Assembly: GCA_016712635.1 (NCBI GenBank)
Contig: JADJQS010000008.1
Coordinates: 139,268-203,267 of the forward strand
DNA length: 64,000 nt
Direction: 5' to 3'
Origin: Gammaproteobacteria bacterium
Lineage (GTDB): Bacteria; Pseudomonadota; Gammaproteobacteria; SZUA-140
In this document: positions 7,128 to 40,345 of the stretch, in pieces
Position numbering within the stretch: position 1 is the stretch's first letter
Layout of the letters: the number at the start of each line of letters is the position of its first letter
Notes under the pieces: model-generated
Seen by the model: the letters and a program-made list of their open reading frames with translations, nothing else
Databases searched by the model: none
What the model was told of the DNA's origin: nothing
Made by a program: the position numbers and the translations under genes

Positions 7128-7733
7128 TTGTCGGCGCCGATCGAAGTCATCGCCGGCCTGGGAAACCCGGGCGGCGACTATCAGGATACGCGCCACAATG
7201 CGGGTTTCTGGTTGCTCGACGATCTTGCGCGGCAACTCGGTGTCGAGTTCAGGGCGGAGCGCCGTTTCCATGCGGAGACGGCGCGCGCCGATCTGGACGG
7301 ACACCCCTGCCACTTGCTCAAGCCCGTCACCTTCATGAACCGCAGTGGCCAGGCGGTCGCCGCGCTCGCGCGTTATTACCGCGTTCCACTCGAGAGGATC
7401 CTGGTGGTGCACGACGAGATCGACCTGCCGCCGGGGATTGCGCGGCTCAAGCGCGGCGGCGGGCACGGTGGGCACAACGGGCTGCGCGACATAATCGAGG
7501 TGTTCGGCGGCGCGGCGGATTTCCTGCGCCTGCGCCTGGGGGTGGGGCGGCCGGCCAGCAGCGACGACGTGGTGAACTATGTGCTGCACGCACCCTCGGT
7601 TACGGACCGCGCCCTGATACGCACGGCGATCGACGATGCCATCGCGGTGCTGCCGCTAGTCGTGTCCGGTGAGGCCGGGCGCGCCATGAACCGGCTCCAC
7701 CGCCGCAGGGACGACAACGCAAAGCCGGAATAG
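7128..7733 (+). CDS. pth: peptidyl-tRNA hydrolase
   Basis: IAGLGNPGGDYQDTRHNAGFWLLDDLA. Matches the prs-rplY-pth-ychF synteny. Confidence 0.9.
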   Translation: MSAPIEVIAGLGNPGGDYQDTRHNAGFWLLDDLARQLGVEFRAERRFHAETARADLDGHPCHLLKPVTFMNRSGQAVAALARYYRVPLERILVVHDEIDLPPGIARLKRGGGHGGHNGLRDIIEVFGGAADFLRLRLGVGRPASSDDVVNYVLHAPSVTDRALIRTAIDDAIAVLPLVVSGEAGRAMNRLHRRRDDNAKPE

Positions 7734-27069: not shown

Positions 27070-27104
27070 ATGATAAGCTGCTTGCTATTAGATAGGGTTC
27101 TACA

Positions 27105-27302
27105 ATGTTGGAAATCTTCAGCGACATAAAAAGCCATTTCGACAGCTTGCAAGATCGCCTTGATGTATTTGGGAAATATGGAGTTCAGGTTGAGGGGTGG
27201 TTGAAAGGAGAGCTCCTGTTTAAGCTAAGTAAAATGAAGGACGAAGGCCTTATATTCGATTTCGATCGAGAAGTGTTAATTATGGGGACTAAGAAAAGAT
27301 AG
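27105..27302 (+). CDS. hypothetical protein (low-GC islet; possibly the 5' fragment of a disrupted gene)
   Basis: 65-aa ORF in an AT-rich segment. A second open frame (27330-27620) without an ATG start follows, so the gene may be decayed. Confidence 0.3.
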   Translation: MLEIFSDIKSHFDSLQDRLDVFGKYGVQVEGWLKGELLFKLSKMKDEGLIFDFDREVLIMGTKKR

Positions 27303-27720
27303 ATCTGAGGATAACAACTAACGATAGGGCTCAGCATTGGGTAGAGTTAAAGAATTAGACCAGTAAACAAAAAAGGAAGGTCTTATGACCCAAAATTCTA
27401 CTTTGGTGATAAACACGTAGGCATTTTTAATGATGTCGAAAAACTTAAATCTATATCGGAACCAAAATGGTTGGTGATATTAATAACGCCCAATACGACT
27501 AATGAAAAATGGGAAGAAGGAGTTCGGATTTTTGAGATTAAATACAATATCAATATTGAATCACATCAATCGCCTTCAATGTTCCAGGAGAATTATTTCT
27601 TAGGGTTGATTAGCATAAAATAAACTGCGGAAGAAAAGCCAATGTAACGGTGTAAAGTCTTGCGCCGCTACAATTTCTTACTATAAGACTTAGCGTCGTT
27701 ATTTTAAGGGGGGCAATCCA

Positions 27721-28098
27721 ATGCGATATAGTTATTGGGTTACTAATAAGCATCTTCTGATATGCGCAGCATTCATCTTTACAATTCTTGTCGTATCATC
27801 CCAAGTCGTTGCAGGTAAATTATATAGCCCCGCTGAATTACGTAGCATGGTAAAAAGCGGTAATTATCCACCTCAAGGAAAGGTTACGGATACTGAGACC
27901 CAAGCAATGAGCTTTCGTGCTTGTACGGAGCAAATCAATCAGATTATAGGCTCCATAACGCCAGAATATCCTGTAGAAATAATTGTCGATACGCAGATCA
28001 TGAAAATGATAAAAGCGTGGACTAATGACGGAGCGATTACACTTACATGTAGCGGACCTGATGAAAAATTTACTTTCACCACGGCACCGTATAAATGA
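27721..28098 (+). CDS. hypothetical secreted/membrane-anchored protein (low GC)
   Basis: 125 aa with an N-terminal hydrophobic segment (LLICAAFIFTILVVSSQVVA). AT-rich codon usage is distinct from the host. Confidence 0.5.
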   Translation: MRYSYWVTNKHLLICAAFIFTILVVSSQVVAGKLYSPAELRSMVKSGNYPPQGKVTDTETQAMSFRACTEQINQIIGSITPEYPVEIIVDTQIMKMIKAWTNDGAITLTCSGPDEKFTFTTAPYK

Positions 28099-28204
28099 GC
28101 AAACAGAATAACATCATCAAAAGGGTCAGTACCCTTTGTTGATCGAGCTTTGATTCCCTTGATCCGTTCCTTGGCTCGAATGTCAGGCGCCGAGTGAGGC
28201 CAGA

Positions 28205-28408
28205 TTGGACATATCCTTATTACTCTGGGGTCTGCTGTTCAGCTCGATCGGGCTCGGCTTCTTCATCTATGGCAGGAAGCAGAAGGCGGTCGTTCCGCTG
28301 GTGTGCGGGCTGGCCCTCATGATCTATCCGTACTTCGTCTCCAGCACGTTTCCGCTCGTCTCGATCGGGGCCGTGCTCATGGCCATTCCGTATTTCGTCA
28401 GGATATAG
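28205..28408 (+). CDS. small hydrophobic membrane protein (67 aa, two TM helices)
   Basis: MDISLLLWGLLFSSIGLGFFIYGRK...ALMIYPYFVSS...LMAIPYFVRI shows an internal repeat of two TM hairpins. Confidence 0.45.
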   Translation: MDISLLLWGLLFSSIGLGFFIYGRKQKAVVPLVCGLALMIYPYFVSSTFPLVSIGAVLMAIPYFVRI

Positions 28409-28474
28409 GTCAAGATCAATGGGATCTTCTGGCGAAAGCAGTCAAAGAGCTGGTGGCTTCCTGGAGGCAGAGAA

Positions 28475-28763
28475 ATGAGCAAAGCGTACACTGAAATATC
28501 TGCCGGCCTGAAGGAGGCGATCTCCCACGCCAAGGGAAAGAAAACCAGGACTCAGGATGCATCGCCATGAACCTATCGACGTCAAGGCCATTCGCGAGAA
28601 GACCGGGATGAGCCAGCAGCGGTTCTGCGCAACCTTTGGGATTTCGCTTGGTACCCTGCGTCATTGGGAGCAGGGCTTGCGTGCCCCGAGAGGTGCGGCG
28701 CGGGTGTTGCTCAAGGTGGTTGCTAGTAACCCGAAGGTGGTAATGAAGGCAATTGGCGAATAG
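28475..28763 (+). pseudogene. HigA/NadS-like HTH antitoxin, frameshifted (N-terminal 31 codons in one frame, HTH body in +1 frame)
   Basis: MSKAYTEISAGLKEAISHAKGKK... aligns with the intact paralog at 29275 (EILEGIREIRRGEHG). The HTH (KAIREKTGMSQQRFCATFGISLGTLRHWEQGLRAPRGAARVLLKV) continues in the next frame. The break maps to an A4 run near 28533-28536. Confidence 0.6.
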
Positions 28764-28952
28764 CCGGGAATAAATGAGGGAGAATTATTTTTTCTGCCCC
28801 GGTTATTTCCGGATAAGACATTGGCTTTATTGATTTCAAGGTGACCGCTGTGTAATTTCTTTCGCGAAAAGAGATTTTGTTCCTGCTGTCAGCCACAGGG
28901 AGGTGGCCGCCATGATGTACAGCTCTGTTGCTTCGCTTGACGTTATACGTCA

Positions 28953-29547: not shown

Positions 29548-29705
29548 AATGAGAGCCGGACAATCGGGCAGACCACGTCTTCAGGATTCGGAAGGATGGA
29601 GAAAGTGGGTTGGTACCTTTCTCTGCCAGCGGCAGTGTGGTCCGCTCCAAGGGATCAAAAAGCCACGTTGCAAAGCGGGTCGTCAAGCATCAGAAGGACA
29701 TGCAA

Positions 29706-30162
29706 ATTGGAAATATGGATAGACGCAGATGCATGCCCGGTTGTCGTAAAGGAGATTTTATTCCGGGCGGCAGAACGGACAAAAACCAGGGTAACGCTGG
29801 TTGCAAATCAGGATATTAAAATCCCGCCTTCAAGGTATGTTACCTGCCTGCGCGTGATGCCGGGTTTTGATGTTGCCGACAATGAGATTGTTAAGAGGGT
29901 AAATGACGGCGATCTGGTCATCACAAGTGACATACCCCTGGCGGATCTGGTTTTGACTAAAGGTGGTTGTGCCTTAAGCCCGCGGGGTGAGTTATTCACC
30001 CATGAAAATATCAAATCCAGGCTTAATATAAGAGACTTTATGGATACTCTGCGCAGCAGCGGTATACGCACAGGCGGGCCATCCACCCTGAGTCAAAGCG
30101 ATCGCAAGGCGTTCGCGGACCATCTCGATAAGTGGCTTTTCAATAAGCAGATAAATCTGTAA
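29706..30162 (+). CDS. YaiI/YqgE-like DUF188 (UPF0178) family protein
   Basis: [34 protein letters not shown]...[10 protein letters not shown]...[16 protein letters not shown] closely parallels E. coli YaiI. A TTG start is inferred because the ORF-track start at 29596 adds a non-homologous leader. Confidence 0.7.
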
Positions 30163-30260
30163 GTATTAGCTGCGGATCACCTGGTCCGGGGATAATCGGG
30201 TACAACCCCATTAAATCAACGTTGATGCAGGTATAGAATTGAGTTTCGGACGATGGAGGT

Positions 30261-30494
30261 ATGGATATGGCCGCTACTCTGAAGGAATTGGAACAGCTGG
30301 CTCGGGCCCTGGAGGCCGAGGAGCGGGCGAAACTGGCCGAGGCTCTGCTCGAGTCGCTGCACTCTCCGCTCTCGGACATCGAGGCGGCCTGGGCGCGGGA
30401 GATCGAAGACCGCGTCGCCGCTTTTGACCGTGGTGAAATGAAGAGTTACGCGGCTGAGGATGTGTTTGCGGAAGCGCGGCGCACATCGCGGTGA
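30261..30494 (+). CDS. addiction-module antitoxin (putative addiction module component, Phd/ParD-like, TIGR02574-type)
   Basis: 77 aa. LKELEQLARALEAEERAKLAEALLESL...IEAAWAREIEDRVAAFDRGEM is characteristic of this antitoxin family. It overlaps the toxin by 4 bp. Confidence 0.7.
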   Translation: MDMAATLKELEQLARALEAEERAKLAEALLESLHSPLSDIEAAWAREIEDRVAAFDRGEMKSYAAEDVFAEARRTSR

Positions 30495-30793
30495 AACACG
30501 CCAGGTTTGTTGCCGCCGCCCGGCGTGAGTTCCTGGCACAGGTAATCTACTACAACGAAGAAGAATCCGGACTTGGTGCCCGCTTTACGGCTGCGGTCGA
30601 AGAGGCTGTTATCCGGGCCCTTGCCTTCCCGCTCGCCGGGTCACCTGCGACCCGGAGCACGCGGCGAGTCTTTGTCAAAGACTTCCCCTTTGCGGTCGTA
30701 TATCGACCCCATGCCGACGGCATTACGGTGTTCGCGCTCGCGCATCACTCGCGCCAGCCGGGTTACTGGAAATTACGTGTTCAGGAGCGCTAG
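30491..30793 (+). CDS. type II toxin, RelE/ParE family
   Basis: 100 aa, GTG start overlapping the antitoxin stop. ...RVFVKDFPFAVVYRPHADGITVFALAHHSRQPGYW is a RelE/ParE fold signature. Confidence 0.7.
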   Translation: MKHARFVAAARREFLAQVIYYNEEESGLGARFTAAVEEAVIRALAFPLAGSPATRSTRRVFVKDFPFAVVYRPHADGITVFALAHHSRQPGYWKLRVQER

Positions 30794-30838
30794 ACAGTTG
30801 GCAGACAGGACGGGTGGTATTGTCACACAAGGAAAATC

Positions 30839-31438
30839 ATGGCGCTGTTCCTGAGTCTGTGGATCAAGCTGTTCTTCGTGCTGACGCCGTTCTTCGGACT
30901 CACGATGTTCCTCAGCATGACGGAAGGGTATGACGAGCACCGTCGGCGCAAACTCGCCCTGGCGGTGTCCGCGGCGGTGGCGATGCTGTGCCTGATCCTG
31001 TTTTTCGCCGGCCGGCAGATCTTTTCGCTGTTCGGCATCACGCTGGATTCTTTCCGCATCGGTGCCGGCGTGCTGCTGATGCTGTCGGGTATCGCGCTGG
31101 TGCAGGGCAGGGCGGGCGCGGCCGATGCCGCCCGCGAGGGCGATGTCGCGGTGGTGCCGCTGGCGATGCCGATCATCGTCGGTCCGGCCACCACGGGCAC
31201 GCTGCTCGTCATGGGGGCCGAGCTGAACACGGTGGCGGCCAAGGCCGTCGGCAGCCTGGCGCTGTTCGCCGCCGTGCTGTGCATGGCGGCGGTACTGCTC
31301 GCGGGTTCGTTTTTTCAGCGCCTGATGGGCGTCAGGGGTATCGCGGTCCTCAGCAAGCTGACCGGACTGATCCTGGCGGCACTGGCCGCGCAGATGATCA
31401 TGACGGGGATCCAGGGATTCATCGGCGTTCAGCCGTGA
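30839..31438 (+). CDS. MarC-family (UPF0056) integral membrane protein
   Basis: 199 aa, 6 TM. LFFVLTPFFGLTMFLSMTEG...MPIIVGPATTGTLLVMG matches MarC/YhgN family motifs. Confidence 0.8.
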   Translation: MALFLSLWIKLFFVLTPFFGLTMFLSMTEGYDEHRRRKLALAVSAAVAMLCLILFFAGRQIFSLFGITLDSFRIGAGVLLMLSGIALVQGRAGAADAAREGDVAVVPLAMPIIVGPATTGTLLVMGAELNTVAAKAVGSLALFAAVLCMAAVLLAGSFFQRLMGVRGIAVLSKLTGLILAALAAQMIMTGIQGFIGVQP

Positions 31439-31474
31439 CATCACCTCGAATCAAGCATCCAGGATAAAACGGCT

Positions 31475-31891
31475 TTATTGCCCCGTCGACTCGGGCAGCG
31501 AAAAATCCAGCGCCGCGACGATCCGGTTCAGGCGCCCCTGCTCGCCGCCGCCCAGCATCAGCTCCGCGTTGGCGGCGCCCGCGTTGCGGATCGAGAGTTC
31601 GATTTTCTCGATGAACAGCCGGCTGCACTCCGCGACCTTATCCTTGAGCAGTGCCAGCAGTAACGGGATATCCTCCGGCTTCTTCACCCACGCCTCGATG
31701 AAAAGGCCCTCCTTGACCTTGATCTTTGCGTTGGAGGCGTGTTTTCCCAGCAGGACATTGAAGATGGAGCACCAGTCCCCGGGGGCCTGGTGCGATAACC
31801 TGAAAAAGAGATCGATATAGGGTTCCTTCCTGATCCTTGGCGGCCGTTTGTCATCGATGCCGACGATCTGAATGTCACTGATACCCTCCAT
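31475..31891 (-). CDS. hypothetical protein
   Basis: 138-aa ORF with no recognised motif and moderate GC. It does not overlap any identified gene in this window. Confidence 0.4.
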   Translation of the reverse strand: MEGISDIQIVGIDDKRPPRIRKEPYIDLFFRLSHQAPGDWCSIFNVLLGKHASNAKIKVKEGLFIEAWVKKPEDIPLLLALLKDKVAECSRLFIEKIELSIRNAGAANAELMLGGGEQGRLNRIVAALDFSLPESTGQ

Positions 31892-32246
31892 TGCCTTGCC
31901 TCCATCGTGCGCCTGTGTGAATCAGGCCATCATCGTGCCGGATCGGCACCCATGCCATCGGGAAAACAACGAACAGTCGTGGAGAGGGGCGGGGTAGAGC
32001 CGGAGTGTCCATCGCCCCCATGTTAGCGGCCGCTGCGATGGGTTCAGCAGCGCTGTTTGCCGATATTCCGGGCCCGCCCAAAAGGCTCTTGCAGATGATA
32101 AGCATTGTTGCGTGGATCCCAAATCGGAGAATCCGGACAGGGGAATGTGCTTTCGCTATAATCCGACGAGCCTTGGCCGGAACATTCAAGGCGTCAGTAC
32201 CCGTTTTTCTTCTGCGTTGATCAATCAAATCGAACCCGGGATCCAG

Positions 32247-32588
32247 ATGAGCACCTTGCCCAAATGTCCGCAATGCAGTTCCGAATACACCTATGAAGAC
32301 GCGGGCATGTATATCTGCCCCGAATGCGCCCATGAATGGTCGCCGCAGGCCGCGGCGGAGGCGGTGGATGAGAAGCGCGTCGTGCGCGATGCCTACGGCA
32401 ACGAACTGAAGGACGGCGACTCGGTGACGGTGATCAAGGACCTGAAGGTGAAGGGATCCTCCGCCGTGGTCAAGGTCGGCACCAAGGTGAAGAACATCCG
32501 CCTCGTCGACGGCGACCACGACATCGACTGCCGCATCGACGGCGTCGGCGCGATGGGCCTGAAGTCGGAGTTCGTGAAGAAGGCCTAG
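32247..32588 (+). CDS. phnA: PhnA/YjdC zinc-ribbon protein
   Basis: [31 protein letters not shown]...[42 protein letters not shown] is the canonical PhnA. The ORF-track N-terminal extension is ignored. Confidence 0.88.
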
Positions 32589-32605
32589 GCTCCATTTATG
32601 TGTTA

Positions 32606-32630
32606 GGGGACAGATTTTAAATCTGTCCCC
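32606..32630. repeat. REP-like palindrome GGGGACAGATTTTAAATCTGTCCCC
   Basis: Perfect palindrome 18 bp after the phnA stop. Confidence 0.85.
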
Positions 32631-32942
32631 TTGTAGTCGTGTCCCCCTGTGGTCACGAATGATCTGGAGCGGAATTCAAGCGCGTAGGCATTGTGGGCAA
32701 GCGTTTGTTCGTGTTCCTGTCGGTCATGCTCCCGGTGGGGTGCTCTGCCCAGGCCGCTGAACAGGCATCCGGGCAAAGGCTCGATGAGGTCGCCGAACGC
32801 GGCGCAGCCGTGGCAGATCGACATCGCATATAGGGAACTGCCCGATGGCGCAGGCTCGACTACCCGGCCCGCGATGCGAAGCCGGTCGCCGCCATACACA
32901 AATCGCCGCTAACTGTTGTACCCGCGAGCCTGTGTTATCTGT

Positions 32943-32980
32943 GAAAAAAAAGCCCCTGCCACCGGGCGGTGACAGGGGCT
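32943..32980 (-). terminator. rho-independent terminator of cbbM (minus strand: AGCCCCTGTCACCgcccGGTGGCAGGGGCTTTTTTTT)
   Basis: GC-rich 12-bp stem followed by T8, 20 bp after the cbbM stop. This makes cbbM monocistronic. Confidence 0.8.
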
Positions 32981-33002
32981 CTGTTGCGGATGGACCCGCC
33001 GC

Positions 33003-34295
33003 CTACTTGAACTTCGCCAGCTTGTCGCGCCAGCCCGGGAAGAGCATGTCGGCGTCTTTCGGGAACGAGTAGAAGGCGCGCGCGAATTCGCGGTGCTCCT
33101 TGGCGTACTCGACCGGGTTGGCGCCGGCCTTCCAGCACTCATAGGACTGCCGCAGCGAGATGGCGCCGGCGGCCGGGCTGTCGATGTGGCCGTAGGAGCC
33201 GCCGCCGGCGGTGTTGACCAGGTTGCCGTGGCCGAGGTTCTGGAAGAAGCCCGGCAGGCGCAGCGCGTTCATGCCGCCGGAGATGATCGGCGTCGTGGGT
33301 TTCATTCCGTACCACTTCTGCAGGTACACCGGGCCGCGGCTCTCGTCGCGCTCGATCATGTAGGCAATGATCTTGTCGTCGCCTTCGCCTTCCATCTTGC
33401 CGTAGCCCATGGTGCCGACGTGGATGCCGGAGGCGCCCTGCAGACGGCTCATCTTTGCCAGTACGAACGCGGTGTAGCCGCGCTTGGACGAGGGCGAGGT
33501 GACGGCGCCGTGGCCGGCGCGGTGGTAGTGCAGGTACTGGTCGGGGTACTGGCGACGCGCTGTCGTCACCATGCCGGGGCCGCCGACATAGCCGTCCACC
33601 AGGAAGGCCAGCTTGTCCGCGTCGGAGCCGAAGGTCTCCAGCGCGAAGTCGGCGCGGGCGCACATCTCGTAGTGGTCGTCGGCCGTGATGTTGAGGGAGA
33701 ACAGCTTGGCCTCGCCGGTCTTGTCCTGCGCACGCTTCAGCGAATCGTAGACCAGCGGCAGCGTCTTCTTCAGAGGAGAGAACACCTGGTTGCCCTGCGG
33801 CTCGTCGTTCTTGATGAAGTCGCCGCCGAGCCAGAACTCGTACGCAGCCTTCGCGAAGGGCTCGGGACGCAGGCCCAGCTTGGGCTTGATGATGGTGCCG
33901 GAGATGTAACCGCCGTCCTTGATCGGGCGGCCGAGGATGCGCCACAGGTCGGAGATGTCCTTGGACGGGCCGTCGAACAGCTGGATCGCGCGCGGCGGCA
34001 CGTGGAAGTCGATCATTCTGCCGTATTCGATGTCGCCCATGCCCTGGTTGTTGCCGATGGTCAGGGTCAGGAAGGACACCATCATCATGCGGCCGTCGGT
34101 GACGTTGCGGTCGAACAGGTCCAGCGGATAGGCGATGCGCATGTCCTCGTTCTGCTCGTCGATGTAGTAGACGAGCGCGTCGACGCCCTTGGTGAAATCG
34201 TCGGTCGTGCTGACTTCCACGTTGGTGCCGGTGGACGATTCGGCGGCGAAATGCGCGGCGGCCTCCAGATAGCCATGGCCGGCCTTCGGCTTCAT
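33003..34295 (-). CDS. cbbM: ribulose-1,5-bisphosphate carboxylase/oxygenase, form II large subunit
   Basis: Near-collinear with Rhodospirillum rubrum CbbM ([28 protein letters not shown]...[14 protein letters not shown]...[13 protein letters not shown]...). The conserved N-terminus continues upstream but out of frame (see finding). Confidence 0.93.
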
Positions 34296-34659
34296 CTTGT
34301 AGGCGACCAGGATATGATTACCCTCGTTGATCAGGTCTTGTTCTTTGAGGGCAAGGTTTGCGTAACGTTTGGACTGGATCCATCTGATTCTCCCAATGAC
34401 GATAAATGACCGACAAAATGTGCGATTATAGGCGATCGGGAAAATCCAAGGAAGTCTGTATGGTTATTTATACTTACTCCAGGTCCGGATATGGCAACTG
34501 GGGTATGCGCTAGCTGATTGATTTACAACGTACTCTTCATGCAGTTCGCCCCGAGCATAGGGGATGAATGAGCCGGATTGCGGGTACGTTAGCGCCGGAC
34601 AGGGCGTGAGATGCCGACCGTGCGTACACGCTGATTCAAATCGTAAGGAGCAGTGTGAG

Positions 34660-34984
34660 CAGTCTGCCTGAATGCCCGCAGTGCAATTCCGGATACTCCT
34701 AATTAAGACTCGGGCAAATACATCTGCCCAGAATGTGCCCATGAATGTGGCCGCGGGGGGCGGTGAATGACAAGGGCGTGCGCGTGCCGCGGCAACAGCT
34801 GAAGGACGGCGACTCGGTGACAGTGATCAAGGTCCTGAAGGTGAAGGGCACGTCCACCGTGGACAAGGTCGGCACCAGGGAGAAGAACATCCGCCTCGTC
34901 GACGGCGATCACGACATCGACTGCCGCATCGACGGCATCGGCGGTATGGGCCTGATGTCGGAGTTCGTGAAGAAGGCCTGGCCG
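34660..34984 (+). pseudogene. decayed duplicate of phnA (internal stops/deletion in the 5' half; 3' 190 bp about 90% identical to intact phnA)
   Basis: Translation gives ...[95 protein letters not shown]. The nucleotide stretch was compared by eye with 32400-32588. Confidence 0.75.
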
Positions 34985-34985
34985 T

Positions 34986-35087
34986 AATATATTTGGGGTC
35001 AGAGTAAAAACCCCTTCCGGAGCTGCGTGGCTGAAGCCAGGCGCCGGGCTGGTGGGTGGCGAAGGTTTTTACTCTGACCCCAAATAT
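34986..35087. repeat. MITE-like hairpin element: perfect 24-bp terminal inverted repeats (ATATTTGGGGTCAGAGTAAAAACC ... GGTTTTTACTCTGACCCCAAATAT) around a 51-bp core
   Basis: Read directly from the sequence. It sits exactly at the junction between the phnA pseudogene and the dsrE-like gene. Confidence 0.8.
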
Positions 35088-35114
35088 GATTGGTAGATAC
35101 CCTGTGAGGCAGCC

Positions 35115-35435
35115 ATGAAACTCGGCGTCATCATCGAGACGAACGAACCCGAAACGGCCTGGAACGGCGTGCGCTTCTGCAACGCAGCGCTGAAGAAGGG
35201 TCATTCCGTGAAGCTGTTCCTGATGAGCGCAGGCGTCGAGATCGAGAATATCCGGGGCGGCAAGTACGACATTGTGCTCCAGCTCGAGGAGTTCTCCGTC
35301 AACGGCGGCAAAGTGCTCGCCTGCGGCACCTGCATGAAATCGCGCAACCAGTCCGAATCGGATGTCTGCCCGACCTCGACCATGAACGACTGCGTGGAAA
35401 TGGCGGAGTGGGCGGACAAGGTAGTGACGTTCTGA
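35115..35435 (+). CDS. DsrE/DsrF-like sulfur-relay family protein (cytoplasmic)
   Basis: 106 aa. MKLGVIIETNEPETAWNGVRFCNAALKKGHSVKLFLMSAGV...ACGTCMKSR has the DsrE/TusD fold with conserved Cys. Confidence 0.75.
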   Translation: MKLGVIIETNEPETAWNGVRFCNAALKKGHSVKLFLMSAGVEIENIRGGKYDIVLQLEEFSVNGGKVLACGTCMKSRNQSESDVCPTSTMNDCVEMAEWADKVVTF

Positions 35436-35630
35436 GCTGCCCCGGGCATGGCCTGAGACATGTCCCCGTGATGCTCACTGTTCAGCCTCCGGATAAGCCA
35501 TGACGTTTCCATGGATTCTGTTCCGCAGCGCGATGTTGCGCCGCCCGGCGCGCGGTATGGCAGGTTTTCCGGGCGGTCGATGATGCCTGTATAATCTGCC
35601 TCCGGTTCCTGTTATCACACGAGAGGCCGC

Positions 35631-36383
35631 ATGATCGAGCTGTTGTCCGACCCGAATGCCTGGATCGCCTTTATTACGCTGACCGCCCTCGAGCTCGTGC
35701 TCGGGATCGACAACATCATCTTCATCTCGATCCTGGTCGACAAGCTGCCGGAGGCGCAGCGCGCGCTGGCACGCCGTCTCGGGCTGTTCTTCGCGATGTT
35801 CACGCGCATCGGCCTGCTGTTCCTGCTGGCGTGGATCGTCGGCCTGACGGCCCCGCTGTTCACCGCGCTTGAGGAGGAGATCTCCGGGCGCGACCTCATC
35901 CTGATCACCGGCGGCCTCTTCCTGCTGTGGAAGAGCACGATGGAGATCCACCAGTTGCTGGAGGGCGAGCCGGGCCATTCTTCCTCGGCGGTGCGCGCCA
36001 CGTTCACGTCCGTCATCGTACAGATCGCGATCATCGACATCGTGTTCTCGCTCGATTCCATCATCACCGCCGTGGGCATGGTCGATCACGTCGAGATCAT
36101 GGTCGCGGCGGTGGTTGCCTCGGTCGCCCTGATGATGTTCTTTGCCGGCCCCATCAGCCGCGTCGTCTCAGCGCATCCGACCATCAAGGTGCTGGCGCTC
36201 GCCTTCCTGTTCGTCATCGGCGTAGTGCTGGTTGCCGACGGTTTCGACCACCACATCCCGAAGGGCTACGTCTACTTCGCCATGGCCTTCGCGGTCGCGG
36301 TCGAGATCATCAACCTGCGCATGCGCAAGCGCGCCGCCAGGCCGGTCGAACTGCGCGAACCCTACACGCGGGACGGTGAATGA
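35631..36383 (+). CDS. TerC-family integral membrane protein
   Basis: ALELVLGIDNIIFISILV...IAIIDIVFSLDSIITAVGM are TerC/Alx family motifs. Confidence 0.85.
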   Translation: MIELLSDPNAWIAFITLTALELVLGIDNIIFISILVDKLPEAQRALARRLGLFFAMFTRIGLLFLLAWIVGLTAPLFTALEEEISGRDLILITGGLFLLWKSTMEIHQLLEGEPGHSSSAVRATFTSVIVQIAIIDIVFSLDSIITAVGMVDHVEIMVAAVVASVALMMFFAGPISRVVSAHPTIKVLALAFLFVIGVVLVADGFDHHIPKGYVYFAMAFAVAVEIINLRMRKRAARPVELREPYTRDGE

Positions 36384-36438
36384 GGCGGGCGTGAGACATC
36401 CGCCGCCGGGAATGCGTCCGACATCGAGATAAGCACGG

Positions 36439-36726
36439 ATGATGCGCCTGCTGCCGTTGATTCTGGCGCTGGTCTTTCCGGCGGCGGCCGTTCCGGCCCC
36501 CGTCTGTCATATCCACCCTCCGGCATCGGAGAGTGATGCCGCTCCGCCGGCCATCGTCGGACCGTACGGCTCGATCAATGCGTGCGAACAGGCAAACGCC
36601 CTGCTCTACTCAGGACAGGGCCGCTGCCATTGCGCATTCGACGGCGCGGGCTGGCAGGACCGGCCGATGCTGCCGGAACTGCCGCAGGACCCGGCGCAGG
36701 CCCCGTTTTTTGACCGGAATAATTGA
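36439..36726 (+). CDS. small secreted Cys-containing hypothetical protein
   Basis: MMRLLPLILALVFPAAAVPAPV signal, 95 aa. No family was recognised. Confidence 0.4.
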   Translation: MMRLLPLILALVFPAAAVPAPVCHIHPPASESDAAPPAIVGPYGSINACEQANALLYSGQGRCHCAFDGAGWQDRPMLPELPQDPAQAPFFDRNN

Positions 36727-37059
36727 GATCGGAAGGCGAGTACGGCCCGGTCAAGTTGCTGTGGCGTGGCGTGTCTCCGGTGGAGCCGGGCCAGGCAGCC
36801 GGAACAGGAATGGCAGTTGCTGCGGGCCTTCATCGGTTATTTCGACCGGCACACCGGCGAGCAGATCCAGACCGTCACCATCACAGAACTCTTATGCCGC
36901 CGTCACCCGGGGACCAGGCCGAGGTGCCCTGCGACATTATGTCGCAGGCGTACACAGACCCGGGCCGAATATACTGGCCGTGACTGTCGAGACCGGGGCC
37001 AGGCACCGTCCCCGCGTCCCGGACTTCGCTGCAATGACTCAACAAGGAAGGAGATATTC

Positions 37060-37479
37060 ATGAAACTGATTTCCCGATGGGCGCTGCTGCTCGCCCTGCT
37101 GGCCGCGGCAGCCGTTTCCCCTGTCATGGCGGGAGACACGGACCCGCTGTTCATCAATCTGACGACCGATGACCCGCACCGTGCCGAGATGGCCATCTCT
37201 TTCGGCAAGAATCAGTTCGAGCGCGGCCATCCCCTGACGATCTTCCTGAATGACAAGGGCGTGCATATCGGATCCAGGGCCGACGCCGCCAAGTTCGCCA
37301 GCCATCAGAAGGTGCTGGGAGAGCTGATCGGCAAGGGCACCGTGGTGCTGATCTGTCCCATGTGCATGAAGCATTACGGCGTGGATGAGGGCGATCTGCT
37401 GCCGGGATTGAAGGTCAGCAATCCCGAGCTCAGCGGCGCCGCGCTGTTCGAGGACGACGCCCGGACACTCACCTGGTAG
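37060..37479 (+). CDS. DsrE/DsrF-like family protein with Sec signal peptide (periplasmic)
   Basis: RBS GGAAGGAGAtattcATG. MKLISRWALLLALLAAAAVSPVMA signal. ...LTIFLNDKGVHIG...VVLICPMCMKHYG is a DsrE-like core. Confidence 0.7.
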   Translation: MKLISRWALLLALLAAAAVSPVMAGDTDPLFINLTTDDPHRAEMAISFGKNQFERGHPLTIFLNDKGVHIGSRADAAKFASHQKVLGELIGKGTVVLICPMCMKHYGVDEGDLLPGLKVSNPELSGAALFEDDARTLTW

Positions 37480-37711
37480 AGGGTGCCGGGGTCATTCCCC
37501 GGCGTGTACCGCGGGACCGGATAGTTGACCGGAGGCCTCGGTTTTTTCTGCATCACTGCCTGTCACCCGAATCGTTTTAACACCCGCCTGCGCCAGGCTC
37601 CCTGGCCTTGCCATGAGGTGGATACCTCCGGGTCCGCTGGACTATGCTTTATATGCGCCCGTCCGCGAGCGGCTTTTGTGGCGCAACTACCTGTCCAGTG
37701 GAGATCCGAGC

Positions 37712-38656
37712 ATGAAAACAACAAAGCGATTCCGGGTGGTGTTGGCAGTGCTGGTTATCGGAGCGGTATTCCTCGGCATGTCGGCCTGCGGTGGCGACGA
37801 CGACGGCCTGGGTGAAACGAATACGGAGACAAGGACCGCGACGCTGGGCAACGACATGAAAAATATCCCGCTCGTCGCGAATCAGCAGACGGAGATCAGT
37901 TTCACCTACCTGATCCCCGGGGCGATCACGTCCAAGGGCGATTACACGATCAATTTCACCGAGACGCTCAAGAACGTCTCCCTGAGTTCCGCGCCGATCG
38001 CGAAGAATACCAACAGGCTGGAGACGCTCAGGATGCTGGCCGCGGTGCTGATCAAGGACGCCTTTGCGCAGGAGGAGTCGCAGGTCACCGTGTTCGTCTC
38101 CTACCCGGACGATCCGGACGTCTGTTCCAGCCCCAATGTATTCGGGCCGTATACCATCCTCGGCGCGATCGGCACCGCGTTGACGAGCAACACCCAGACG
38201 GCCGCCCCGACGGATGCCGTGATCAATATCTCGAACCTGGGCAGTGTCGAGGTGTGCGTGGTGACCACGCCGCCCATCAACGCGTTCCTGACGGTGACGG
38301 GCGTGGCTGTCGACCTGGAGGACTGTGCCGCGCCGACTGTCACCATCGCCAACACCGACTGGTCCGGGACGTACACCTGCGACAATTTCGGCGCGGGAGA
38401 CGAAGGGGGCGACGTCGACCTGACGATCACCCGGAACCAGGACGGCAGCTATCACTACACGGACGGATCGGCGGAATACGACGGCCACCTGTGCGGGAAC
38501 AAATTCAAATTCAGCGGCGGCGTCGCCAGTTCCTACACGGAGAGCGGCACGCTGGTATTCAGCAGCAATACGGCGGCGACGAAGACCTCCACCTGGAACA
38601 GCATCCCGCCCGGATTCAGCGGCGGCAACTGTTCCGATACGCTGGAACGCCAGTAG
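37712..38656 (+). CDS. hypothetical lipoprotein (LGMSACGG lipobox), Thr/Cys-rich
   Basis: MKTTKRFRVVLAVLVIGAVFLGMSACGG, about 315 aa. No recognised domain. Confidence 0.55.
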   Translation: MKTTKRFRVVLAVLVIGAVFLGMSACGGDDDGLGETNTETRTATLGNDMKNIPLVANQQTEISFTYLIPGAITSKGDYTINFTETLKNVSLSSAPIAKNTNRLETLRMLAAVLIKDAFAQEESQVTVFVSYPDDPDVCSSPNVFGPYTILGAIGTALTSNTQTAAPTDAVINISNLGSVEVCVVTTPPINAFLTVTGVAVDLEDCAAPTVTIANTDWSGTYTCDNFGAGDEGGDVDLTITRNQDGSYHYTDGSAEYDGHLCGNKFKFSGGVASSYTESGTLVFSSNTAATKTSTWNSIPPGFSGGNCSDTLERQ

Positions 38657-38679
38657 GGAGTCGGTTCCGAAGCGGCGCC

Positions 38680-38943
38680 TCAGGCAGCATCGTCCCCGGG
38701 TTCTACGGCGGGGGCCGTGCGGCCATGCAGGTGCCGGATCGCCTGCACGCTGGCGAAGGTCGAGACGCAGTAGGGCACGAGGAAGGTCAGCCCGATCTTG
38801 ACCCATTCCGTCAGCGTGACCGACCCGGACAGCAGCTTGTCGCCGTGGTTGATCAGGGCGAGGATGCAGCCGACGAAGGCCGCGACCTTCAGAGCACGCG
38901 CGGCGACCGAGCGTTGCAGTGCGATGTCGAACCAGTCGCGCAT
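38680..38943 (-). CDS. small hydrophobic membrane protein (hypothetical)
   Basis: 87 aa with two predicted TM segments. It ends immediately before a REP cluster. Confidence 0.4.
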   Translation of the reverse strand: MRDWFDIALQRSVAARALKVAAFVGCILALINHGDKLLSGSVTLTEWVKIGLTFLVPYCVSTFASVQAIRHLHGRTAPAVEPGDDAA

Positions 38944-38950
38944 AATGAAT

Positions 38951-39034
38951 GGGGACAGATTTCGGTGGTATCGGGGACAGATTTAAAATCTGTCCCCGTA
39001 TTGCCGCAAGGGGACGGATTTGAAATCCGTCCCC
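38951..39034. repeat. REP-like cluster (half unit; GGGGACAGATTTAAAATCTGTCCCC at 38973-38997; variant GGGGACGGATTTGAAATCCGTCCCC at 39010-39034)
   Basis: The palindromes were read directly. The variant unit carries paired compensatory changes. Confidence 0.85.
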
Positions 39035-39043
39035 ATTCCTTTC

Positions 39044-40345
39044 CTAGAACTTCCAGGCGTAACTGGCCGCGAGCTCCCACTCGTCCATGCGCAGCGTGAT
39101 GGTCTGGCCGGGGTCGAGCGGATTCGCGCCGCTGACCTCCTTCTCCGGCGCGTACATGGCGGCGAAGCTCCATTCGCCGGCATCGCCGAGACGCCGGGTG
39201 AATCCGGCGGTGAGATGCTGCTCCATCACGCCGGGCGCAAGGATGTTGAACAGCACTTCGCTGTCCGGGATCGGCTGGTCGCAGCGGCTGTAGCCGACGC
39301 GCCAGGTCCAGTCCTCGTCGCGCACCCACTGGTAGCCGAGTTTGAACACCGTGACGTCTTCCCAGCCGAAGCCGGCACCGCCGTCGTTGCCGAGCTGCGC
39401 GGTCTGCAGGTTCGGCAGCATCGGCGCGCCGACCGACTCGATGTCGCTGTACCAGATGCGCTGCACGTCGAGCAGCAGCATCGTGGCCGGGCTGGTCTCC
39501 CAGGCCAGGCCGAGAGCCATGGTCGCCGGGATATTGAAGCCGCCCTGCTCGGCGAACAGGCCGCGGTACTGGTCGAACTCGTCCATCCGCATCTCGGTCT
39601 GGTAGGCGGCGCCGAGCGTGAGCCCGGTCTGCACCTCGCTGGTGATTCCGATGCGGGCGCCGTAGCCGATCGAGGTGTCGTGGCCGTTGTCGGTCAGATT
39701 GTCCGGATCGCTGGAGAAGCCTTGCGCGCCGAAGGCGGCGAGGCCGGTGGCCTCGAAGCGCTGGTAGGCGAGGATCGGGCTGACGCCCCAGGCGGTCGAG
39801 TCGTTGAGCCGCTGAGCGTAGCTGACGTTGACGAAGAGCTGCGCGAGGTCGACGCCGGTCCCGGCCTCTCCGCCGAAGAAGCCGCCGAAGTACGTCCCGG
39901 CGCCGCCGCCGGCGCTGTCCGGCCAGTCGGTGTTCATGCCGCCGTTCGCATAGACGCTGACCCCGAGTGCACGGTCGTCGTCGAGCATGCGGTTCCAGCC
40001 AAAGTGCGGGATCAGGAAATATTCGCTGTCGCTGTCCACCGTTTCCGGCGTCAGGCCGAAGCTGTTCGGTGCACCCGAGGGCGCGCCACTCACGGTATAC
40101 GAGCGGTGCGGGCTGAACAGCGCCACGCCGGCATCGATCCGGTTGCCGACATTGACCATGCCGGCCGGATTGGCGGCCGCGGCCAGGCTGTCCTGCGCCA
40201 GCGCGGTGCCCGCGCCGGCCAGTCCCTTTTCCTTCACGCTGTACGCGTGCGAGAAATAACCGTTGGTGGCCGCGGCGTCGCCCGCGGCGAACAGCGCGGT
40301 GAACGCGCCCGCCAGGGCGAGATTCCTGTTCTTGTGCATGTGCAT
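39044..40345 (-). CDS. FadL/TodX/OmpP1-family outer-membrane transporter of hydrophobic compounds
   Basis: Signal peptide, β-barrel-like alternating pattern, and C-terminal ...ELAASYAWKF (aromatic terminal residue). NPA/Gly-rich loops are typical of FadL. Confidence 0.7.
   Translation of the reverse strand: MHMHKNRNLALAGAFTALFAAGDAAATNGYFSHAYSVKEKGLAGAGTALAQDSLAAAANPAGMVNVGNRIDAGVALFSPHRSYTVSGAPSGAPNSFGLTPETVDSDSEYFLIPHFGWNRMLDDDRALGVSVYANGGMNTDWPDSAGGGAGTYFGGFFGGEAGTGVDLAQLFVNVSYAQRLNDSTAWGVSPILAYQRFEATGLAAFGAQGFSSDPDNLTDNGHDTSIGYGARIGITSEVQTGLTLGAAYQTEMRMDEFDQYRGLFAEQGGFNIPATMALGLAWETSPATMLLLDVQRIWYSDIESVGAPMLPNLQTAQLGNDGGAGFGWEDVTVFKLGYQWVRDEDWTWRVGYSRCDQPIPDSEVLFNILAPGVMEQHLTAGFTRRLGDAGEWSFAAMYAPEKEVSGANPLDPGQTITLRMDEWELAASYAWKF

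Follow-up and report, generated by a model that had tools for sequence, protein, structure and literature searches.

The DNA analysed here is a window of 64,000 nucleotides (nt) from contig JADJQS010000008.1 of a gammaproteobacterial metagenome-assembled genome (MAG), in which a 2.4-kb stretch carries a stand-alone form II RuBisCO gene, cbbM, with an intact phnA at one end and a decayed second copy at the other. A preliminary description of this sequence proposed that cbbM had been acquired laterally by insertion into phnA, with the second phnA as a duplicate of the target gene and an adjacent inverted repeat as the trace of a miniature inverted-repeat transposable element (MITE). We confirm the observation with corrections, whereas the interpretation is partly supported and proves half right: as the corresponding locus of a close relative contains one phnA and lacks the RuBisCO gene, the cbbM locus is an ordinary recombination-driven gain-or-loss polymorphism and not a transposon insertion. 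The features of the locus are as follows, numbered from the first nucleotide of the window.

32247–32588, plus strand: intact phnA (yjdM), encoding 113 amino acids (aa), MBK8163766.1.
32606–32630: palindrome GGGGACAGATTTTAAATCTGTCCCC, 25 nt, of the repetitive extragenic palindromic (REP) kind.
32693–32899, plus strand: remnant of a gene here called orf160, with a ~220-nt internal deletion, a frameshift and a truncated 3′ end.
32900–32938: non-homologous joint.
32941–32982, minus strand: intrinsic terminator of cbbM (stem at 32949–32982, then a T-run).
33003–34383, minus strand: cbbM, 459 codons plus one extra base; the uninterrupted open reading frame (ORF) spans 33003–34295.
34376/34377, minus strand: the extra base in cbbM.
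34384–34654: divergent cbbM/phnA intergenic region (leader), 50% GC, with a ribosome-binding site at 34389–34394.
34655–34981, plus strand: phnA pseudogene (the remnant).
34989–35087: REPIN-like hairpin (102-bp element), with arms at 34989–35012 and 35064–35087 and a 51-nt spacer.

Contigs of relatives present this locus in several states, listed here with their similarity to the window (identities and synonymous divergence, dS) and their gene order; HTH denotes helix-turn-helix and primes mark decayed genes.

L081 (Logan contig, SRR31776074), 98.5% nt identity: phnA-REP-orf160′-cbbM-phnA′, the same order as in the window.
L082, CbbM 97% aa identity: hydrolase gene, cbbM (minus strand), one intact phnA, tfoX_C, dsrE, terC, fadL, yeeE, hrpB.
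L207/L208, CbbM 99% aa identity: clpB…RelE-HTH-orf109-cbbM (minus strand)-leader-intact phnA.
L210, dS 0.26–0.47: clpB-orf325-phnA-REP-orf160-terC, no cbbM.
L211/L212, dS ~0.05–0.2 for most shared genes: RelE-HTH-HTH-yaiI-marC-orf138-phnA-hairpin-dsrE-terC…fadL-yeeE-hrpB, no cbbM.

The L211/L212 locus, orf138-phnA-hairpin-dsrE, is an exact empty site, and the window is 2408 nt longer than L211 here. The single phnA of L211 can be aligned twice: together with the left flank it matches the intact copy, and together with the right flank it matches the remnant. Since this single, uninterrupted phnA has the exact outer flanks of the window and no cbbM, the 2.4-kb cbbM segment is a genuine indel with its ends in phnA homology. 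The footprint of insertion or recombination suspected earlier thus stands as far as the indel and the decaying phnA copy are concerned, but not for the inverted repeat, which also lies in the cbbM-less L211/L212.

The intact phnA had been recognized correctly: it matches the NCBIfam model TIGR00686 with 164.9 bits (cut-off, 80.2) and the Pfam families YjdM (PF03831) and Zn_Ribbon_YjdM (PF08274). It is the ortholog of the single phnA of L211/L212, with 94.4% nt identity to that of L211. By position, the remnant is instead the ortholog of the intact phnA found beside cbbM in L082 and L208. It has GTG in place of the ATG start codon, a +1 insertion followed by TAA at codon 16, small deletions and TGG in place of the TAG stop codon, and the frameshift and the TAA at codon 16 deprive it of an intact YjdM/PhnA reading frame. 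Its stops, its deletion and its identity of about 90% to the intact copy at the 3′ end, as first described, are borne out by our alignment, in which the identity is 89% over the 3′-terminal 197 nt, 91% over the 3′ half and 86% overall. The ratio of nonsynonymous to synonymous divergence (dN/dS) is ~0.42 for the remnant versus 0.11–0.17 for intact copies, indicating relaxed constraint. As a separate observation, the window has about a dozen small deletions relative to L081 crowded into ~80 nt of the remnant (window 34719–34800, L081 121–240), and the rest of the 2.5-kb alignment of these two sequences contains 19 substitutions and one other indel. Such a cluster points either to a complex mutation or to a consensus error, local to this spot, in a population-bin assembly.

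The ancestry of the two copies does not match a duplication of the target gene. Quartet counts supported the pairing of the intact copy with L211, and of the remnant with L082, by 7:0:0, and the equivalent pairing with L208 by 6:1:0. These quartets unite the intact copy with L211 and exclude the remnant, which is thus no recent duplicate of the intact gene. Moreover, derived states common to L211 phnA and the intact copy extend to alignment column 298, which confines any crossover between the window state and the L211 state to the last ~44 nt of phnA. The flanks are likewise of two kinds: downstream, the intact copy is still followed by sequence of the cbbM-less allele, and the remnant still has the leader and cbbM of the cbbM allele upstream and, downstream, the flank common to L211. 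An in situ tandem duplication of phnA in this lineage, with cbbM inserted between the copies later, would account for two direct repeats on the same strand, 2.4 kb apart. We nevertheless consider it very improbable, given the sister relationship of the intact copy to L211 phnA with the remnant left outside, the different alleles from which the flanks come (REP-orf160 as in L210; cbbM and leader as in L082/L208) and the similarity between the copies, which ends at the start and stop codons.

The non-homologous junction of the segment lies elsewhere. The spacer after the intact phnA (32589–32899) is homologous to the REP and orf160 of L210: in blastn comparisons, L210 10013–10548 and 10771–10870 match window 32259–32805 and 32801–32899, respectively, and translations of these regions were compared (tblastx of L210 against the window gave mostly noise, and the blastn rows alone were used). 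L210 has the same 25-nt palindrome at the orthologous place after phnA, followed by orf160, which there encodes a 160-aa product with a lipoprotein-like N terminus. On the other side, homology to the cbbM-bearing relatives ends exactly at the T-run of the cbbM terminator, beyond which the sequences of the relatives' lineages are unrelated. As L210-type homology ends at 32899 and homology to the cbbM allele of L082 and L207/L208 begins at 32939–32946, the sole non-homologous joint is at 32900–32938, where the decayed orf160-like gene gives way to the cbbM terminator, some 300 nt beyond the 3′ end of the intact phnA.

In L082 and L207/L208, cbbM on the minus strand and phnA on the plus strand form a conserved divergent pair in which the single phnA is intact, which contradicts the proposed insertion of cbbM into phnA. 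The gene occupies the same chromosomal neighbourhood in three lineages, downstream of clpB/RelE-HTH and upstream of phnA-dsrE-terC. The perfect inverted repeat, for its part, was described correctly: its 24-nt arms, ATATTTGGGGTCAGAGTAAAAACC, match perfectly, and none of 100 shuffled sequences contained such a match. It begins 7 nt past the phnA stop codon, and in L211/L212 a hairpin occupies the identical site, from which we conclude that it is a bystander and not a footprint of the cbbM event. The idea that a mobile element carried cbbM into phnA, leaving a target duplication and a 24-bp MITE footprint, gains some appeal from the direct phnA repeats around cbbM and from a perfect inverted repeat 7 nt after the remnant. 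It is highly improbable, however, in the light of the occupied hairpin site in cbbM-less relatives, the single intact phnA beside cbbM in L082 and L208, the identity of only 86% between the phnA copies with the remnant outside the intact–L211 clade, and the position of the real joint in a decayed orf160. Furthermore, the cbbM segment contains no transposase or integrase gene, the window contains no RAYT-like gene, and the borders of the segment are phnA homology.

The independent short-read assembly L081 spans the 3′ end of the intact copy, the REP, the orf160 remnant, cbbM, the leader and the phnA remnant in the same order, and this shared order argues that the arrangement is not an assembly chimera. 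A chimera of co-existing strain haplotypes in a population-bin MAG might be suspected because the protein accessions resemble those of a long-read project whose bins stand for populations, and because there are local oddities near the 5′ end of cbbM, namely its extra base and the small deletions clustered in the remnant. We regard such an artefact as most unlikely, considering the 98.5% identity of L081 across the same arrangement and the ~9 kb of shared genes that have no frameshifts relative to L211.

Gene orders, breakpoints, the orthology between the intact copy and L211 phnA, the decay of the remnant and the hairpin at the empty site are all shown by the sequences; the mode of recombination, the succession of its steps and the direction of change are inferred. 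In the explanation that we prefer, to which we give about an even chance, the window joins two alleles by a homologous crossover and an illegitimate joint, the phnA beside cbbM then decayed, and the L211-type locus is likely to be a deletion product. One parent would have been a cbbM allele of the kind found in L082 and L207/L208, with cbbM divergent from phnA and complete in itself, having a ribosome-binding site, a promoter region and a terminator of its own; the other would have been a cbbM-less allele with the order phnA-REP-orf160, as in L210. In the window, …marC-orf138-phnA-REP-orf160′ on the left would derive from the cbbM-less allele and terminator-cbbM-leader-phnA-hairpin-dsrE-terC on the right from the cbbM allele. 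The join would have involved a single homologous crossover, in flanking DNA that the alleles have in common, and an illegitimate joint at 32900–32938, a process known as homology-facilitated illegitimate recombination (PMC3240628), and a similar displacement that leaves gene remnants has been described (PMC5361080). Part of the locus would thereby have been duplicated in tandem, leaving two phnA genes, one of them redundant; the copy beside cbbM would then have decayed. A RecA-type exchange within the last ~44 nt of the phnA repeats would then delete REP-orf160′-cbbM-leader and yield the exact L211/L212 arrangement. The reverse exchange would reinsert the segment, making the window-type and L211-type loci interconvertible. 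Most likely the L211-type locus is the deletion product and cbbM was lost there, a direction that we favour because deletion between repeats is the commoner reaction.

Several points weigh against this preferred explanation. The L211-type locus could instead be an ancestral empty site into which the segment integrated later. The age of the pseudogene, a back-of-envelope estimate from counts of unique substitutions and dS, comes to ~0.03–0.05 dS per lineage, younger than the split between the window and L211 (~0.06–0.075); the error bars overlap, and the estimate slightly favours gain after the split. Apart from the sisterhood of the intact copy and L211, the phnA tree is star-like, with too few informative sites to separate the remnant, L082, L208 and L210. 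The exact cbbM-less parental allele (orf138-phnA-REP-orf160-terC) occurs in none of the sampled genomes, most contigs of relatives are short, and the illegitimate joint is placed from the end of homology and bears no recognizable signature.

Gain by Campbell-type integration after the L211 split is a serious though less probable alternative. Here a single exchange between a circularized fragment from a related donor (terminator-cbbM-leader-phnA-REP-orf160′) and the 3′ end of the resident phnA would have brought in cbbM together with a second phnA, and this incoming copy would have decayed. The exact empty site of L211/L212, the segment ends within the last ~44 nt of phnA, the somewhat younger estimated age of the pseudogene and the gene order of the window, which is a circular permutation of a plausible donor cbbM-phnA-REP-orf160, are all consistent with it. 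It requires, however, a circularized random chromosomal fragment and a donor allele that was not observed, and it runs against the commoner reaction, deletion between direct repeats. In addition, cbbM lies at the same chromosomal place in L207, downstream of RelE-HTH, suggesting that the gene is old at this locus, and the leader is about as diverged from that of L208 as the flanking genes are, with no sign of recent transfer from that lineage.

A more speculative and rather doubtful extension is that phnA serves as a portable homology anchor, by which a form II RuBisCO unit pops in and out through phnA recombination, so that closely related strains of one community switch cbbM carriage with a reversible, transposase-free autotrophy cassette. 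If so, the window would show the cassette in place, at a stage when the decay of one anchor copy is fixing it there. Independently of this extension, the locus is a base-level example of a carbon-fixation gene that differs between close relatives (dS ~0.1–0.2) without mobile-element machinery, homology at a small conserved gene being sufficient for such a difference. It also cautions that a gene copy flanking an insert need not be a target duplication, and that a perfect inverted repeat at a junction can be a bystander. Beyond these points, and a caution about annotation given below, the locus is well-resolved but ordinary genome plasticity.

The cbbM gene is longer than first described. Its identification as cbbM holds, but its extent does not: position 34295 is an internal methionine codon, and the 430-aa ORF at 33003–34295 is only the portion downstream of it. 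This ORF gives a full-length match to the equivalog model NF010002 (836.6 bits; cut-off, 489) and matches the Pfam domains RuBisCO_large (1.4e-121) and RuBisCO_large_N (1.7e-30). The active-site stretch GGDFIKNDE, read directly from the sequence, is present in the product, and the identity to many metagenomic CbbM proteins is 86–100%. The true start codon is the ATG at 34383–34381, preceded by the ribosome-binding site GGGAGA. From this conserved start (MDQSKRY…), the frame is unbroken in four relatives (L081, L082, L207/L208), whereas in the window, where M-D is read in another frame than the remainder, it is broken after codon 2 by the extra base at 34376/34377 (gene strand ATGGATC[C]AG), which causes a +1 frameshift at codon 3. 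On the plus strand, the window has GG where L081, L208 and L082 have G. After removal of the extra base, the 459-aa product is 100% identical to P0001, a protein from an independent assembly. A programmed frameshift was considered and rejected, given the four relatives that do not have the extra base.

Either an assembly error or a very recent mutation is the probable cause of the frameshift. The accession series MBK8163766/7 resembles that of a Nanopore long-read activated-sludge population-bin MAG project. The extra base adjoins a GATC site, and on account of this position and of the likeness of the accessions we lean towards an assembly error, as roughly twice as likely as a real lesion; the ~9 kb of neighbouring shared genes without frameshifts counts against such an error. 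PMC9765116 describes the long-read MAG project itself only. The public annotation of the gene (MBK8163767.1; 461 aa, beginning MRWIQSK…) sidesteps the frameshift by means of an ATC start at 34388. As this start hides the frameshift, a prediction of autotrophy for this MAG hinges on one base being real.

Apart from that base, the substitution pattern of cbbM is one of constraint. All 12 nt differences from L081 are synonymous, and dN/dS is 0.03 versus L207 and 0.07 versus L082. Judged from these comparisons, cbbM has been under strong purifying selection, and the exclusively synonymous differences from L081, with the ratio of 0.03 versus L207, indicate that it was functional until very recently or still is. 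Composition offers no indication of foreign origin, since the GC content (63.7%) and the GC content at third codon positions (GC3, 0.93) are within the range of the neighbouring genes. The dS of cbbM (0.16 versus L207 and 0.19 versus L082) is below that of the flanking genes (0.28–0.62), and recent horizontal transfer was considered as a reason for this low value. We rejected it: the non-coding leader is only ~85% identical to that of L208, with an indel of ~75 nt, a divergence equal to that of the genome background, and the low dS is therefore best explained by constraint on cbbM, whose GC3 is 0.93. The lateral acquisition proposed earlier thus finds neither a compositional nor a divergence signal of recent arrival.

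The preliminary description also stated that cbbQ, cbbO and a divergent cbbR are missing beside cbbM, and this holds throughout the window: none of cbbR, cbbQ, cbbO, cbbLS and prk was found among its scanned ORFs, and the 10 unscanned ORFs (up to 152 aa) are too short. Likewise, no cbbR, cbbQ or cbbO adjoins cbbM in L082, L083–L086, L207–L209 or the P0005 contig. More distant cbbM relatives (91–94% aa identity) stand in unrelated contexts, near nifV/nifW or near radical-SAM and Zip genes, and are also solo. A solo cbbM without cbbQ, cbbO or cbbR is typical of the clade.

The terminator attributed to cbbM at 32943–32980 is real: a 15-bp stem with 9 GC pairs, on the minus strand at 32949–32982, is followed by a run of eight T residues and begins 20 nt past the cbbM stop codon, in keeping with an intrinsic terminator, and it is kept in L081, L082 and L207/L208. 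The leader is AT-rich, as described, with 50% GC versus 65% for the window. It contains a −10-like sequence, CCTATAAT, at 34432–34425 on the cbbM strand and a motif, CTAGCTGATTGATTTACAA, at 34510–34528, both of which are kept in L081, L208 and L082 within an intergenic region that has diverged elsewhere; for the divergent cbbM/phnA pair, we regard the former as a candidate −10 promoter element and the latter as a candidate binding site of a regulator. A consensus promoter scan of the intergenic region yielded no full sigma-70 match, and an Rfam search over 32000–35600 returned two sub-threshold chance matches only.

The hairpin next to the phnA remnant folds with −63.7 kcal/mol (z = −6.0), and its 24-nt arm pair is single-copy in the window. 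The 20-nt core of the arm, TTGGGGTCAGAGTAAAAACC, occurs exactly in at least 120 metagenome contigs (L087–L206) of 33–68% GC from marine, freshwater, sediment and saline samples, and 75 hairpin pairs, with spacers of 1–112 nt between arm cores, are found among the matches listed. A gene for a Y1 (IS200-like) transposase of ~230 aa is present in 17 of the 120 listed contigs, and in 13 of these 17 it lies 11–121 nt from an arm. The transposase matches Pfam Y1_Tnp (2.6e-13), and its best NCBIfam match is REP_Tyr_transpos at 71.7 bits, below the cut-off of 80; among the matches listed, the transposases beside arms are 44–67% identical to a reference protein from L175. No direct repeat indicative of a target-site duplication is present around the hairpin, whose flanks are …CCGTAAT and GATTGGT…, and direct reading of the arm and its complement revealed no GTAG/CGTC tag at the stem ends. 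A literature search found no paper that contains the arm sequence. From these sequence features, the hairpin appears to fit the REP/REPIN–RAYT kind better than the MITE kind to which it had been assigned. In many copies, the outer arm end and a few flanking bases are tandemly duplicated, for example as AGGAGTTTGGGGTCA followed directly by AGGAGTTTGGGGTCAGAG… or, in L163, as (GGGTATTT)n; examples are L087, L095, L110, L113, L123, L163, L191 and L194. This duplication may be a signature of insertion or processing of the element.

A comparison with known elements yields likenesses and differences. Like REPINs with their RAYTs (Bertels & Rainey 2011, PMC3116915; PMC3337134; PMC5581495), the element consists of two inverted copies of ~20–24 nt around a spacer, forms a long intergenic hairpin and belongs to a sequence family of which some of the listed contigs carry a Y1 transposase gene near an arm. 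It differs in that its arms do not bear the GTAG/CGTC tag of classical REPs (PMC3733652), that the transposase (~230 aa with a C-terminal extension) falls below the family cut-off, that the window has one copy and no RAYT gene, and that the exact 20-mer spans contigs of 33–68% GC, an unusual breadth for REPINs, which are described as lineage-specific. With MITEs the 102-bp element shares its shortness, its perfect terminal inverted repeats and its non-coding nature, but no target-site duplication is evident, the arms are associated with a Y1/HUH and not a DDE transposase, and the element is unlinked to the cbbM indel.

The gene itself resembles cbbM of Rhodospirillum rubrum and of Thiobacillus-type betaproteobacteria in its full-length NF010002 match, in both Pfam RuBisCO domains and in the GGDFIKNDE stretch; it differs from those systems in the frameshift at codon 3 and in having no adjacent cbbQ/cbbO, no divergent cbbR and no other cbb gene within 64 kb. 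The locus as a whole parallels homology-facilitated illegitimate recombination (PMC3240628) and the cassette displacement in the immunity arrays of the Vibrio cholerae type VI secretion system (PMC5361080): all have an anchor gene, a variable cassette, one homologous end, one non-homologous joint and decaying remnants. In V. cholerae-type displacement, however, a 3′ fragment of the anchor is duplicated, whereas here the whole anchor gene is, and the mechanism proposed here is read from the end-points. Campbell-type integration and excision would likewise place the segment between direct repeats of phnA and leave an empty site with one hybrid repeat, the crossover being in the last ~44 nt. Unlike such systems, the segment has no integrase, att site or plasmid or phage backbone, and its 340-bp repeats are diverged, so the exchange would be of the RecA type.

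Around the locus, the following neighbouring features were compared.

29548–32938: 3.4-kb block (yaiI, a toxin–antitoxin pair, marC, orf138, intact phnA, REP, orf160 remnant), absent from L207/L208, which have the 0.5-kb orf109 instead.
35115–35435, plus strand: DsrE-like gene, the right-hand neighbour common to L082 and L211.
35631–36383, plus strand: terC, the conserved right anchor of the variable region in L082, L210 and L211.

The window consists mostly of housekeeping genes (hemA, lolB, ispE, prs, rplY, pth, ychF, clpB, fumarase, aconitase, aspS, nadA, ruvCB and tolQR), and the DsrE-like, TerC and YeeE-type genes reported next to cbbM are indeed present. In a scan of genome contigs for TerC, the best match had 80% aa identity, and none of the 80 loci was syntenic with the window. 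Further differences between lineages were noted. A 1.7-kb stretch after clpB (27070–28800) is missing from L207, and the toxin–antitoxin pair at 30261–30793 (indel, 30168–30823) is missing from L211. A 2.66-kb block at 36386–39046 (orf95, a second DsrE-like gene, a 347-aa lipoprotein gene and orf87) is missing from L082 and present in L211. Between phnA and dsrE, L082 has a TfoX_C gene (7414–7725, 103 aa) in exactly the place that the 102-bp hairpin occupies in the window and L211; the window retains no trace of this gene. The whole clpB–fadL interval is a hypervariable hot spot, in which phnA and terC are conserved anchors and the cassettes differ between lineages.

A second hairpin family, GGGGACRGATTTNAAATCYGTCCCC, has eight intergenic copies in the window (at 32606, 38973, 39010, 41674, 55932, 56003, 56037 and 59253). 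L210 carries it at orthologous sites, after phnA and beside fadL, and none was found in the 10.5 kb of L082. The base of its stem, GGGGACAGA, is similar to the arm of the 102-bp hairpin, GGGGTCAGA.

At the left end of the hot spot, L211 (1808–4601) has the last ~190 nt of clpB duplicated beyond an inserted DUF433/DUF5615 toxin–antitoxin cassette. The pattern is the same as that of phnA and suggests that this is a recurrent mode of cassette turnover in the lineage.

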